Made by a program: the position numbers and the translations under genes. A DNA stretch of 64,000 nucleotides, taken from the NCBI RefSeq assembly GCF_054482525.1, contig NZ_CM137006.1. The stretch is one strand, 5' to 3'. Below are positions 27,546 to 37,717 of the stretch, one piece after another (positions within the stretch are counted from its first letter, which is position 1; every line of letters begins with the position of its first letter). The notes under the pieces are model-generated. The model was not told where the DNA came from and did no database searches. It saw only the letters and a list, made by a program, of their open reading frames with translations.

Positions 27546-29297
27546 ATGAACAGAATAGTTGTTGTTGGCCACCCAAATTCAAAATTTGAGGAAGTTGAGG
27601 ATATTCTTAGACAAAGAGGAATGGCTTATCCAAAATCCTCAAGGCGGGAAAATCTAACGCCAAGTGATATTACTACAACTATTTGTAATGCTTATCAAGT
27701 TCATCCATTAGAAGATATTGAAAACGAGAGTGAACTTCATCCATTACAGATTTCTCCTGTATGGAATAGCCTTGTTTTGGATTTAATGCTTAACAATATA
27801 GATCAATTATTTTGGGGGTGGTCAGATCCAAATTTAATATTTTTACTAAATTATTGGTTGGATCTTGATGATAAGTTAATGTTTGTATTGGTTTATGATA
27901 AGCCTCAGTCAGTATTAATAGACAGAAAAAACGAAACATATGTAGACGAAAGAAATATTGAAAGAAAGATAAATAATTGGAACGCATATAATAGTGCATT
28001 ATTAAGATTCTTTCTGCGAAATAAAAAAAGATGCATATTGGTTAGTTCTGAACAAATAAAAAGGAATGCTGAGGATTGCATACAACAAATTCAAGATCTT
28101 CTTGAGTTGCCATCTTTATCTTCAACATTAATAGAAAAGAATACAGATATTATAAATTCCTCTCAAACTAATGAATTATCATGTCAGCTTCCAGTAATAC
28201 ATCAAGATATAATTAATATTTCTGGTATTGACTCAAGAGTTGTCAGGACTGCATTTTCAAATGAAATCACAGAGAATTACTTGCTAAAACATTTACTAGA
28301 ATACTACCCTGCAAGTCAACAGCTTTATGCTGAATTACAATCTGTAGCTAATCTCCCGTCTCAATCATTTATACAAGAGATTCATCCAACTAAGGCTTTT
28401 GAAAATTTTATGCAACAACAGGATGTGAGTTATAAACTAATAACCGCACTCCATAAAGCATACAAAAATATTAATAATGATACTCAACTTATACTGTCTG
28501 AAAAAAATAAAGAACAATCGTTAGTATTGTCACAATTATACGAAGCCCAGGAAGATTTAGAGAGCTTTTATTTAAACAAGAAAAATTTAGAAAAAGAGCT
28601 TAAAATTAAGGAATGCCATCTTGAAGATAAGGAAAGATTAGTTAAAGAAAAAGAAAAAGAACGTAATTGTTTAGAAATTAAACTAGGTGAGCTTGAAAAA
28701 GAATTCAAAGCCACATTAAAAACATTGCAGGAACGTGAATCTCAAATAAAATTATCACAACGATCAATACATGAGCTTCAAAGCAAGTTATCATCACTGA
28801 ATGCGACTGAACAAAAAGCTAAAGAGCTGCGTTCTGGCATTTCACGATTAGAAGAAGAGAATAAATCATTAATATCCCAACTACATCGCGCCCAAGATGA
28901 ACTGGAGAAATATTATTACGATAACCAAAAGCTCAAGCAACAATTACCAGTACCACTGTATGGGGCAGCTCAGCGAATAAAAAATGAACTAGGGTATAAG
29001 TTAGGTGCAGTTATGATAAAACATTCGCACTCACTATTTGGTTGGCTAGGAATGCCTTGGGCTCTTTGCTCTGAAGCTAAAAAATATCGAAATCAAAAGA
29101 AAGATATTGTGCATAATAATGAACCACCTATTTATGCATATAATGACGCCTTTGAAGCAGAACGAGTAAAAAAACATCTTTCTTATAGATTAGGACAGAC
29201 ATTACTTAAAAATATTAAGTCTCCATTAGGTTGGATTAAACTCCCATTTGCACTAGCACAAAATGTACGAGAGTTTCGATTAGAACGAGGTGAGTAA
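27546..29297 (+). CDS. Serotype-block protein A: large protein with long central coiled coil, function unknown
   Basis: 584-aa ORF, very AT-rich; central E/K/L/Q-rich heptad-like stretch (...KNLEKELKIKECHLEDKERLVKEKEKERNCLEIKLGELEKEFKATLKTLQERESQIKLSQ...); no motif I could assign. Confidence 0.6.
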   Translation: MNRIVVVGHPNSKFEEVEDILRQRGMAYPKSSRRENLTPSDITTTICNAYQVHPLEDIENESELHPLQISPVWNSLVLDLMLNNIDQLFWGWSDPNLIFLLNYWLDLDDKLMFVLVYDKPQSVLIDRKNETYVDERNIERKINNWNAYNSALLRFFLRNKKRCILVSSEQIKRNAEDCIQQIQDLLELPSLSSTLIEKNTDIINSSQTNELSCQLPVIHQDIINISGIDSRVVRTAFSNEITENYLLKHLLEYYPASQQLYAELQSVANLPSQSFIQEIHPTKAFENFMQQQDVSYKLITALHKAYKNINNDTQLILSEKNKEQSLVLSQLYEAQEDLESFYLNKKNLEKELKIKECHLEDKERLVKEKEKERNCLEIKLGELEKEFKATLKTLQERESQIKLSQRSIHELQSKLSSLNATEQKAKELRSGISRLEEENKSLISQLHRAQDELEKYYYDNQKLKQQLPVPLYGAAQRIKNELGYKLGAVMIKHSHSLFGWLGMPWALCSEAKKYRNQKKDIVHNNEPPIYAYNDAFEAERVKKHLSYRLGQTLLKNIKSPLGWIKLPFALAQNVREFRLERGE

Positions 29298-29303
29298 TAT
29301 ACG

Positions 29304-36248: not shown

Positions 36249-36250
36249 TT

Positions 36251-37717
36251 ATGTTCAATAATTTAAAATTTTTATGGCTATTAAAGAAAGGTCGATATGT
36301 ACATGCTTTAGCTGCAATACAAGATGACTGCCGATTTTGGCAGTCAAAACGTATATTGGCAATGTACAGGCTTAATATGTATTGGTCATTACATAATCTT
36401 ACTGATACACCGCCAGATTGGCGGTGTAAATTAGCAATTAAAATAGCTAAAATTGCCTGTGGTGACATAAGCTTAACTCCGGAATTACTCATGGAGTTTA
36501 AAGACGAGTACACAGAAACACATCAAAAAGTTGAGTTAGCAAAAACCTTAGCATCATACTCTCCTGAGTTTTCATTATCATTATTAGATAATGCCGATAA
36601 TTGTCCCTTAGACTTGTATACAGCTCTTCAATTAAGAATCGGGTTAACTCAAAAAGCTATATCAACACTCGCTCAGATTGATGTCAGTGATATTGTATAC
36701 TCCCCTGATATATTACTCTTGCAAAATAATGCTTTCAGAGAAACGGCAGAAATCTCTTTAAATAGACTTAACGAATACTATAAGTACTTTGGTTTATCTC
36801 CAGTCGCACTTGCAGATAACTCATCTCCGTTGTCACCTTGTAATATTATTACATTGGTTCCTTATCCTGTCCAAACGGGCCCCCTGGTTTCTATTTTAAT
36901 GACAACATACAATACCGGCAGGCGGGTAGAAAATGCAGTAATATCATTGCTTAATCAAACATATCGTTCATTTGAGCTAATTATTGTGGATGATGCCAGC
37001 ACCGATGATACGCTATTTCGTCTTCAGAGATTAGCACTCAAAGATACTCGAATAAAAATTATTAGCCTGCCACAAAATGTTGGAACATATGCTGCAAAAC
37101 GAATAGGTTTAATACAAGCAAAGGGAGAGTTTGTGACATGCCATGACTCAGATGACTGGTCCCATCCTGAAAAATTATTTAGACAGATATCACCTTTATT
37201 GTTAAACCATAAACTAATTTGTTCGATCTCTGATTGGGTAAGGTTGCAAGATAATGGGATTTTCTATGCGCGTGCGGTCTATCCACTAAAAAGACTGAAT
37301 CCTTCTTCTCTGCTGTTTAGAAGAGCGGATGTATTGCAAAAAGCGGGCGTTTGGGACTGTGTTAAAACGGGTGCTGATAGTGAATTCATTGCTCGACTTA
37401 AGCTAATTTTTGGTGCTTCCTCTATACATCGTATTAAATTGCCTTTGACACTAGGAAGCCATCGTACCGACTCGTTAATGAATTCACCTACAACAGGATA
37501 TACATCTCAGGGAATTTCACCAGATCGCCAAAAATATTGGGATTCCTGGTCGCGATGGCACATTCAGGCGTTAAGAAATAAAGAAAGTCTTTACATAGGA
37601 AATTCTGATTTCACTAATAAAAATCGACCATTTTCTGCGCCAGACTCAATATTAGTAGATACTAATGCCATCAAAACTGCATTACAAAGTGCTCATGTTA
37701 ACTTTACCAGTATATAA
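36251..37717 (+). CDS. Family 2 glycosyltransferase with N-terminal extension
   Basis: 488-aa; GT-A motif VSILMTTYNTGRRVENAVISLLNQTYRSFELIIVDDASTDDT in the C-terminal half. Confidence 0.7.
   Translation: MFNNLKFLWLLKKGRYVHALAAIQDDCRFWQSKRILAMYRLNMYWSLHNLTDTPPDWRCKLAIKIAKIACGDISLTPELLMEFKDEYTETHQKVELAKTLASYSPEFSLSLLDNADNCPLDLYTALQLRIGLTQKAISTLAQIDVSDIVYSPDILLLQNNAFRETAEISLNRLNEYYKYFGLSPVALADNSSPLSPCNIITLVPYPVQTGPLVSILMTTYNTGRRVENAVISLLNQTYRSFELIIVDDASTDDTLFRLQRLALKDTRIKIISLPQNVGTYAAKRIGLIQAKGEFVTCHDSDDWSHPEKLFRQISPLLLNHKLICSISDWVRLQDNGIFYARAVYPLKRLNPSSLLFRRADVLQKAGVWDCVKTGADSEFIARLKLIFGASSIHRIKLPLTLGSHRTDSLMNSPTTGYTSQGISPDRQKYWDSWSRWHIQALRNKESLYIGNSDFTNKNRPFSAPDSILVDTNAIKTALQSAHVNFTSI

Follow-up and report, generated by a model that had tools for sequence, protein, structure and literature searches.

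The stretch of DNA analysed here, called the window throughout, comprises 64,000 nucleotides of contig NZ_CM137006.1 (NCBI RefSeq assembly GCF_054482525.1) and carries an Escherichia coli group 2 (kps) capsule locus of the ABC-transporter-dependent kind, in which the block of seven genes at 27546-37717 is the serotype-determining region 2. This variable region lies between region 3 (kpsMT) on one side and region 1 (kpsFEDUCS) on the other, with the convergent layout that is usual for such loci and that annotated E. coli loci also show. On the plus strand, kpsM (25846..26622) encodes the transporter permease, a protein of 258 amino acids that matches the NCBIfam KpsM model with an E value of 9e-56, under the equivalog cut-off, and has the length and position of the ABC transporter permease annotated in E. 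coli kps loci; it is followed by kpsT (26619..27311) for the ATPase, which matches ABC ATPases of the polysaccharide-export type and has an annotated counterpart in the kps locus of strain 266917_2 (hereafter L001). Region 1, devoted to poly-Kdo linker synthesis and export, occupies 38615..46604 on the minus strand with six genes: kpsS (38615-39856; NCBIfam KpsS-like model, E 4e-119, under the cut-off), kpsC (39891-41918; no NCBIfam match at E<=1e-20, its counterpart in loci L001-L004 being annotated as a capsular polysaccharide biosynthesis protein), kpsU (41915-42655; CMP-Kdo synthetase model, above the cut-off), kpsD (42665-44344), kpsE (44365-45513; BexC/CtrB/KpsE model, above the cut-off) and kpsF (45585-46604; KpsF/GutQ model, above the cut-off), the last three models also being from NCBIfam. 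A pattern match to the ops (ops/JUMPStart) element, GGCGGTAG, lies at 25806..25813 on the plus strand and precedes the kpsM ATG by about 33 nt; the motif is weak on its own, since the window contains four matches where 1.4 are expected, and its position just 5' of kpsM fits the arrangement of group 2 loci. Here RfaH would be expected to act as antiterminator, allowing transcription to read through from region 3 to region 2. When the block was scanned for promoters and terminators, the matches did not exceed shuffle expectation, and no tRNA was found anywhere in the window, so that pheV, the usual neighbour of kps, does not lie within it.

In the ORF map of the window, seven intact and consecutive ORFs, all on the plus strand and all of full length against other carriers, fill 27543/27546-37717. 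An earlier note on this DNA had described the block as much more AT-rich than the flanking kps genes, which is the case: its G+C fraction is 0.337 versus 0.419 for kpsMT and 0.500 for kpsS-kpsF, with values of 0.557 for the gsp genes and 0.487 for the whole window. Its statement that pathway genes for sialic acid, Kdo, rhamnose and amino sugars are missing holds true inside the block by NCBIfam and Pfam searches, since neither the ORF at 27546-29297 nor that at 29304-31046 matches a family of sugar-precursor pathways; kpsU and kpsF, which are Kdo genes, sit in the conserved region 1, outside the block.

The enzymes that the earlier note had named from the ORFs, namely UDP-galactopyranose mutase, UDP-glucose 6-dehydrogenase, a hexapeptide acetyltransferase, a two-domain GT2 and a second GT2, were all recovered by family models. 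The glf gene (33129..34235, plus strand, 1107 nt) encodes the mutase converting UDP-Galp to UDP-Galf, which scores 386.4 bits over its full length against the NCBIfam equivalog TIGR00031 (cut-off 303.75); in the Kaptive E. coli database glf measures 1107-1110 nt in the three G2 loci that carry it. The dehydrogenase forming UDP-GlcA, Ugd (35079..36248, plus strand; K53_K93_8 in the kTYPr catalogue discussed below), aligns over positions 1-388 of 388 with PRK15057 (680 bits, equivalog cut-off 757, E 7e-205) and passes the nucleotide-sugar dehydrogenase subfamily model TIGR03026 with 349 bits against a cut-off of 190. Between these two genes, the O-acetyltransferase of 222 amino acids (34262..34930, plus strand; kTYPr K53_9) belongs to the WbbJ/LacA/Maa type of hexapeptide proteins, and its closest solved relatives are the O-acetyltransferases of polysialic acid capsules, OatWY and NeuO.

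The two-domain glycosyltransferase (31089..33083, plus strand, 664 amino acids, equivalent to K53_K93_11) has the GT-A fold, and NCBIfam places one GT2 domain at about residues 57-190 and the other at about 378-580. GalT1 and the C-terminal domain of K4 chondroitin synthase both align with its N domain, and its C domain has PRK10073 as best NCBIfam match; the protein is a candidate bifunctional Galf/GlcA capsule polymerase. The single-domain GT2 (36251..37717, plus strand, K53_K93_7) carries its GT2 domain at the C-terminus, behind a helical extension of about 200 residues. The real start of this gene is probably the ATG at 36251, giving 488 amino acids rather than the 446 of the database model, as residues 1-42 align with an Enterobacter homologue of 485 amino acids and the same 488-residue ORF is open in L001. 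Its best sequence match in the PDB, at 114 bits, is to residues 28-240 of Pasteurella heparosan synthase B, an N-terminal GT2 domain which is presumably the GlcA-transferring half of that enzyme. The single GT2 is a candidate beta-glucuronosyltransferase and possibly the primer, or 'transition', enzyme of capsule assembly. The earlier note was silent on the presence of three GT2 domains against a disaccharide repeat having two linkages.

Two of the seven genes had been left undescribed in that note. The first, a KfiB-like gene of the DUF8374 family (27546..29297, plus strand), encodes 583 amino acids, the length of its kTYPr equivalent K53_K93_13, and shows a long coiled coil between an N-terminus of P-loop/sulfotransferase-like character and a C-terminus that is conserved. 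It has no significant match in Pfam-A and only coiled-coil noise in a PDB sequence search, is 100% identical to the copy in the K93-type locus and 43% identical to a DUF8374 protein holding the same position in Enterobacter. KfiB itself had no transferase activity on Kdo acceptors (PMC11666461), and the protein of the window is probably a scaffold of the biosynthetic complex. The second gene (29304..31046, plus strand, equivalent to K53_K93_12) has a putative role only; its product of 580 amino acids begins with a Rossmann-like domain, continues with a helical hairpin about 150 residues long and ends in a class I SAM O-methyltransferase fold, with nothing significant in Pfam and, in the PDB sequence search, coiled-coil noise without a match to a solved structure. 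The gene adjoins that of the two-domain GT2 also in the capsule loci examined from Enterobacter and Uruburuella (Neisseriaceae), and its family has members in Citrobacter, Aeromonas and Cupriavidus.

Which capsule does this combination of genes specify? In the kTYPr catalogue (Nat Microbiol 2026) a K type is defined by the essential kps genes plus a K-type-specific gene set, and the entries for K53 and K93 go back to two sequenced WHO reference strains, SSI 81999 (K53) and SSI 85376 (K93). Gene order, lengths and domain content of the block match K53_K93_7 to _13, the lengths of 583, 580, 664, 368, 222 and 389 amino acids being those of the catalogue entries, with gene 7 catalogued at 446 from an internal start. 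When the translated ORFs were compared with the kTYPr table, the MD5 of the acetyltransferase, 6b00cf84c24ac82fafbf1c78398c7973, proved to be the value listed for K53_9; none of the other six proteins, alternative starts included, had an MD5 match in the kTYPr InterProScan table, K53_9 being the only exact one. The absence of such a match for the shared genes K53_K93_10 to _13 means that the window differs from the representatives in the catalogue, and the shared genes K53_K93_7, _8, _10, _11, _12 and _13 are present by near-identity rather than identity. Against L001, the window has 583/583, 578/580, 662/664, 340/369, 137/222, 388/389 and 444/446 identical residues in gene order. Since these identities reproduce the published K53-versus-K93 values of kTYPr (100, 99.66, 99.70, 93.2, 64.0, 99.74 and 99.55%), we read L001 as K93-type. 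Its acetyltransferase ORF has 227 amino acids, as K93_9, and the MD5 values of its 227-residue acetyltransferase and 369-residue Glf match neither K93_9 nor K53_K93_10.

Alignment with the K93-type locus shows where the two types part: identity drops to 0.4-0.9 only in a cassette at approximately 33500..35080 (plus strand), made up of the acetyltransferase gene with the 3' part of glf on one side of it and the spacer to ugd on the other. Outside this cassette there are only 39 substitutions over some 9 kb, about half of them in glf directly upstream of it. The K93 locus (kTYPr K93; KL93; here L001, inferred K93-type) thus has an identical architecture and six genes that are 92-100% identical to those of the window at the protein level, with a cassette of about 1.5 kb (3' glf and acetyltransferase) replaced. 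Because six of the seven genes are that similar, most of the block cannot tell K53 from K93, and one may ask if this is in fact a K93 locus, or some member of the pair yet to be defined, with the same backbone and the K93 acetylation pattern. The only gene that is strongly type-specific speaks against this: the acetyltransferase is MD5-identical to K53_9 and only 62-64% identical to the K93-type enzyme of 227 residues, K93_9 being missing from the window, and glf has the shorter of the listed lengths, the K93-type copy in L001 having 1110 nt. We regard a K93 identity as highly improbable. On this genomic evidence one acetyltransferase allele is what separates K53 from K93, and K type is readable from sequence; the block is, with high confidence, region 2 of K53 genotype in an E. 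coli group 2 kps locus, for which a Galf/GlcA O-acetylated polymer is predicted. The earlier note had tentatively pointed to the K93/K53 group, and its suggestion now narrows to K53. The locus is therefore already known, as the catalogued K53 type (kTYPr K53; KL53 of the Kaptive E. coli G2/G3 database; SSI 81999, GCA_977946495), which, compared via its catalogue entries, has the same seven region 2 genes in order and length, the MD5-identical acetyltransferase and the same flanking kpsMT and kpsFEDUCS. The window differs from that entry in having an extra IS1 between gene 7 and kpsS, and in shared genes that are not MD5-identical.

Thirty-nine complete E. coli genomes carry the block with 99-100% identity; among the 5,426 complete genomes, about 27 have the K53-type block and about 12 the K93-type, and the names SSI 81999 and SSI 85376 are not among the complete-genome matches listed. 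Its recurrence in these 39 genomes, together with a syntenic counterpart in an Enterobacter capsule locus, identifies it as a conserved unit and not a chance assembly. Reading K type from sequence is of use in E. coli epidemiology, vaccine design and the targeting of phage therapy. In collections of bloodstream and carriage isolates, K53 and K93 count among the minor K types, K53 having examples in ST457, ST12, ST127 and ST69 and K93 being found mainly in ST69/ST106; K93 is known for its cross-reactivity with the meningococcal group A capsule (PMC2188001). Since the link between genotype and serotype was published in 2026, current understanding is unchanged.

The extra element is an IS1 of 768 bp (37799..38566, plus strand), with ends and 9-bp target duplication, TCATTTATT, read directly and InsB-like ORFs within. 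It occupies the spacer of about 120 bp where region 2 and kpsS converge, 81 bp past the last region 2 gene and 48 bp past the kpsS stop; it is absent from L001, and its junction is spanned by none of the 5,426 complete E. coli genomes. Such a private insertion could in principle alter the 3' ends of both converging transcripts, and raises the possibility of a K53 genotype with another phenotype, the capsule being absent or reduced owing to IS1 or to mutations elsewhere. Alternatively, the locus might correspond to a near-relative such as KL164, which clusters beside KL53 in the published K-locus tree (Kaptive scheme). Set against the former are the intergenic position of IS1 between convergent gene ends, where no ORF and no promoter-proximal region is hit, and the intact state of every kps and region 2 ORF; we hold either departure from an ordinary K53 locus to be unlikely.

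As to the predicted product of this K53 genotype, the K53 polymer is a disaccharide repeat of Galf and GlcA with two linkages, O-acetylated, and the K93 polysaccharide has the same backbone. The O-acetyl groups are reportedly at O-5/O-6 of Galf in K93 and at O-2 in K53. K53_9 would be the enzyme that adds acetyl groups to the polymer, giving it the pattern of K53 instead of that of K93. The kTYPr authors state that, K6 and K16 apart, the predicted cluster functions of every type agree with the published structure of its polysaccharide, citing Bax et al. for K53 and K93; the EK3D and BMC Genomics papers make no mention of either type, nor does the main text of either Nat Microbiol paper. The Galf/GlcA O-acetylated polymer predicted in the earlier note gains support from the match to the K53 locus and from the precursor and acetyltransferase genes. 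Near-identity to a locus with a different polymer, which that note had named as evidence to the contrary, was not encountered, since the catalogue authors consider the K53/K93 gene content consistent with the published structures. A richer polymer could nevertheless be envisaged, given three GT2 domains for a disaccharide of two linkages and a conserved protein of class I O-methyltransferase fold within the block: the spare GT2 domain would make a third linkage, or the methyltransferase-fold protein would add O-methyl groups. The structures published for both types, judged consistent with gene content, make this quite improbable, and bulk methylation would be expected to be visible in structural analysis. 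Moreover, the spare GT2 is common to other K loci: the ugd-GT2 pair is found in about 70 genomes at 94-98% nucleotide identity, and the three sampled represent three other region 2 types, so that priming, as a step shared between loci, is a better fit for this enzyme than a function in making the repeat unit.

For the O-acetylated Galf/GlcA polymer, an assembly pathway may be proposed as follows. Transcription would begin upstream of kpsM and, through the action of RfaH at the ops site, continue across region 2. Ugd would convert UDP-Glc to UDP-GlcA and Glf UDP-Galp to UDP-Galf, while KpsS and KpsC would build the poly-Kdo linker on lipid; this linker would then be primed by a GT2, for which the single-domain enzyme beside ugd is the candidate. 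The two-domain GT2 would add Galf and GlcA in turn to form the disaccharide repeat, and the hexapeptide acetyltransferase would O-acetylate the polymer, its allele deciding between K53 and K93. The KfiB-like coiled-coil protein would keep the complex together, and the chain would be exported by KpsMT/KpsED. As the K53 repeat unit is understood, the methyltransferase-fold protein has no place in it and is possibly a capping methyltransferase. WbdD of E. coli O8/O9a, a chain-terminating kinase/methyltransferase with a coiled-coil ruler, resembles it in joining a SAM methyltransferase fold to a long coiled coil within an ABC-transporter-dependent glycan pathway; unlike WbdD, the protein of the window has no kinase domain, there is no sequence similarity between the two, and WbdD is not among its top structural matches. 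We know of no terminal methyl group on K53. A joint proposal, that the single GT2 is the long-sought 'transition' glucuronosyltransferase adding the first sugar on poly-Kdo and the methyltransferase-fold protein a WbdD-like cap setting chain length at the non-reducing end, is speculative and on balance doubtful. The two genes, neither of which the K53 repeat needs, may fill gaps in the biosynthesis of group 2 capsules, and the forward-looking value of the locus lies in these two genes only, as tractable candidates for the priming and chain-termination steps.

Comparison with related loci places the block among GlcA-containing group 2 capsules. In the K5 (heparosan) region 2, kfiABCD, which is of this kind too, the counterparts are KfiD, characterised and 63.5% identical to the Ugd of the window (kTYPr Source Data), KfiB, about 30% identical to the K53_K93_13 protein, and the GlcA transferase KfiC, to which the GT2 domains of the window are 28-32% identical, the single GT2 at 32% according to kTYPr. 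The window lacks the GlcNAc transferase KfiA and has instead Glf, the acetyltransferase, the fused two-domain GT2 and the methyltransferase-fold protein. The three E. coli group 2 loci sampled for the shared ugd-GT2 pair are of the MS14385/ST131 type (with galE and a pyruvyl transferase), the O166:H15 type and the TUM14697 type; all have ugd and the 446/488-residue GT2 beside kpsS and lack glf, a homologue of the 29304-31046 gene and the hexapeptide acetyltransferase. Two of them, MS14385 and O166:H15, also have a KfiB-like gene as well as a two-domain GT2; the latter, at about 690 residues, is only 25-38% identical to that of the window, within the GT-A cores. This generic similarity was uninformative for assigning Galf and GlcA transfer to the individual domains. 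The whole seven-gene module, Glf and hexapeptide protein included, is syntenic in the capsule locus of Enterobacter sp. FS01 (GCA_003024485.1, L005), where it adjoins KpsC and KpsS, in another genus and with export genes arranged differently; protein identity is 43-70% for the three genes compared, the two domains of the dual GT2 reaching 70% and 68%.

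The window contains a whole group 2 capsule (kps) locus of E. coli, situated downstream of the gsp/yghD genes for type II secretion. Its region 3 is formed by kpsM (25846-26622, + strand) and kpsT (26619-27311, +), its region 2 by a block of seven ORFs on the same strand (27546-37717, +) and its region 1 by kpsS, C, U, D, E and F, which run in the opposite direction (38615-46604, -). Read from kpsT onward, the block encodes a coiled-coil protein of 583 aa, a protein of 580 aa (ORF12, 29304-31046) without family match, a 664-aa protein with two GT2 domains, the mutase Glf (TIGR00031, 386 bits, above cut-off), a hexapeptide O-acetyltransferase of 222 aa, the dehydrogenase Ugd, and a 488-aa protein with a GT2 domain at the C-terminus (gene 7, 36251-37717). 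Ugd matches PRK15057 over its full length (E 7e-205), slightly under the equivalog cut-off, and passes the dehydrogenase subfamily model. In profile and family searches, none of the block's proteins resembles precursor enzymes for sialic acid, Kdo, rhamnose or amino sugars, and the G+C content of the block is 0.337, as against 0.419 for kpsMT, 0.500 for region 1 and 0.557 for the gsp genes. The ORF map, family matches and G+C values thus bear out in every particular what the earlier note had said of gene content, missing precursor pathways and AT-richness relative to the kps flanks, even if it described only five of the seven genes in the block. The tRNA scan found no tRNA gene in the whole window, so that pheV, the usual neighbour of kps, lies outside it.

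This locus is already known: it is the K53 K-locus, present in two independent schemes of 2026 (kTYPr K53 and Kaptive KL53). The genotype-serotype map built from sequenced WHO reference K strains places K53 (SSI 81999, GCA_977946495) and K93 (SSI 85376, GCA_977946505) among the group 2 types (PMC13171606; genome announcement PMC13348134). In its catalogue, kTYPr, the genes run from kpsS to kpsT as K53_K93_7 (GT2), K53_K93_8 (Ugd), either K53_9 (222 aa) or K93_9 (227 aa), which are hexapeptide acetyltransferases of 64% mutual identity, K53_K93_10 (Glf), K53_K93_11 (664 aa, two GT domains), K53_K93_12 (580 aa) and K53_K93_13 (583 aa, 30% identity to KfiB); this order and these sizes are exactly those of the window's genes. 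By the per-protein MD5s in the catalogue's supplementary InterProScan table, the acetyltransferase of the window is K53_9. Among 5,426 complete E. coli genomes searched by megablast, 39 carry the block, about 27 with 100% coverage and about 100% identity and about 12 with 92% coverage split in two pieces, while a further 70 match its last two genes only. The locus of strain 266917_2 (L001), one of those with 92% coverage, has an acetyltransferase ORF of 227 aa, and its protein identities to the window (583/583, 578/580, 662/664, 340/369, 137/222, 388/389 and 444/446, from the 583-aa protein to gene 7) reproduce the K53-versus-K93 values in the source data of the map (100, 99.66, 99.70, 93.2, 64.0, 99.74 and 99.55%). 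From the MD5 match, the reproduced identities and the 227-aa ORF it follows that the genotype of the window is K53, whereas the other variant is taken to be K93-type. At the DNA level, differences between the window and L001 are almost confined to about 33500-35080, a stretch made up of the 3' portion of glf, the gene for the acetyltransferase and the spacer. Outside this cassette, just 39 substitutions are scattered across the other 9 kb or so, and about half of these fall in glf directly upstream of it. The window differs from the database entries in carrying an IS1, in a few amino acids and, likely, in the start of gene 7.

Among enzymes of solved structure, the acetyltransferase is closest to OatWY and NeuO, which O-acetylate capsule polymers. 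We take the K53 and K93 polymers to share a Galf-GlcA disaccharide repeat and to differ in the O-acetylation of Galf, at O-5/O-6 in K93 and at O-2 in K53. Such a repeat fits the precursor genes glf and ugd, its O-acetylation fits the relatives of the acetyltransferase, and the difference between types fits the single, divergent acetyltransferase. The catalogue, which cites Bax et al. 1988 for K53/K93, finds that predicted cluster functions fit the published structures in all types except K6 and K16; hence the locus to which the block is nearly identical is one whose functions fit its polymer, rather than one with a different polysaccharide. The proposal of an O-acetylated polymer of Galf and GlcA from the K93/K53 group is therefore supported, and is sharpened to K53.

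How would this polymer be assembled? The analysis shows which genes are present, that they are intact and which type they form; from these, the following route is inferred. An ops motif, GGCGGTAG (25806-25813), lies 33 nt upstream of kpsM, and a site in this position of group 2 loci presumably lets RfaH carry transcription on from region 3 to region 2, as it would here. The ATG at 25846, giving the annotated 258-aa form, is the sensible start for kpsM; a mechanical ORF list extends it to a TTG at 25786 (278 aa), putting the motif within the ORF. Ugd would supply UDP-GlcA and Glf UDP-Galf, while KpsS and KpsC would make the poly-Kdo linker. As alternating polymerase, the dual GT2 (31089-33083) is the obvious candidate. 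Its N domain can be aligned both to GalT1 and to the C-terminal domain of K4 chondroitin synthase; for the C domain, the best match is PRK10073. The product would be modified by the acetyltransferase and exported via KpsMT, KpsE and KpsD.

The finding itself is known, and what interest remains lies only in gene 7 and ORF12, two genes without an assigned role. The best PDB sequence match of gene 7 is to residues 28-240 of Pasteurella heparosan synthase B (114 bits), an N-terminal GT2 domain that we take to be the GlcA-transferring half of the enzyme. The pair of ugd and gene 7 adjoining kpsS (35079-37717) is common to about 70 genomes with 94-98% nucleotide identity, and three sampled loci carrying it (L002, L003 and L004) have three other types of region 2; that of ST131 strain MS14385 contains galE, a KfiB-like gene annotated as 'sulfotransferase family', a 690-aa dual GT2 and a pyruvyl transferase. 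The pair looks like a mobile module of GlcA-containing group 2 capsules. In L003 (strain TUM14697, 1538-7964), region 2 is annotated as a series of short hypothetical proteins plus a frameshifted galE, and looks like either an indel-rich assembly or a decayed locus. The K53 repeat presumably has two linkages; given three GT2 domains for these two and the modular conservation with ugd, gene 7 can reasonably be proposed as the priming ('transition') transferase acting on poly-Kdo. For polymers linked directly to Kdo, this step is still without an assigned enzyme (PMC11666461). In the source data of kTYPr, gene 7 has 32% identity to KfiC. Its ORF opens with an ATG at 36251, 3 nt past the ugd stop, and encodes 488 aa, versus 446 aa in the PGAP and kTYPr models. 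The additional 42 N-terminal residues (36251-36376) align with a 485-aa Enterobacter homologue, and the longer ORF is also open in L001. The databases probably set the start too far downstream, and the true one is likely the ATG at 36251.

The KfiB-like protein has 43% identity to a DUF8374 protein in the corresponding position in Enterobacter. A scaffold role is its default reading, because KfiB showed no transferase activity on Kdo acceptors in PMC11666461. ORF12 belongs to a large, unnamed family without Pfam entry (282 matches, with invariant EFGSG and DGPP motifs), whose members come from Enterobacter, Citrobacter, Aeromonas, Neisseriaceae, Iodobacter, Cupriavidus and Comamonas. In the two contexts outside E. 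coli that were examined (L005, 10001-11842; L006, 10001-11773), the homologue has a DUF8374 protein on one side and a dual GT2 on the other, within an ABC-transporter capsule locus. The AlphaFold2 model of ORF12 (pLDDT 84.8) has two Rossmann-type domains linked by a helical hairpin of ~150 residues, and the predicted C domain is O-methyltransferase-like; the K53 repeat unit, we assume, has no methyl group. By analogy with WbdD, a role in terminal capping or chain length is possible; WbdD is absent from the top structural matches of the model. For group 3 clusters, the authors of the catalogue mention 'putative methyltransferase genes' whose coiled coils are variable.

Outside E. coli, the full K53/K93-like module of seven genes, including glf and the hexapeptide protein, is syntenic in Enterobacter sp. 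FS01 (L005, GCA_003024485.1, 8396-21842), where it adjoins KpsC and KpsS; the genes compared are 43-70% identical at protein level. This synteny suggests that other Enterobacterales were the source of the AT-rich region 2, or share it. Uruburuella testudinis has most of the module, without glf.

A complete IS1 of 768 bp (37799-38566), flanked by a 9-bp target duplication, TCATTTATT, sits where the last region 2 gene and kpsS converge, in the short spacer that separates their ends. Its junction occurs in 0 of 5,426 complete E. coli genomes, so the insertion is specific to this strain. Further ORFs follow downstream of kpsF (46600-64000), including one of 973 aa on the - strand (54428-57349).
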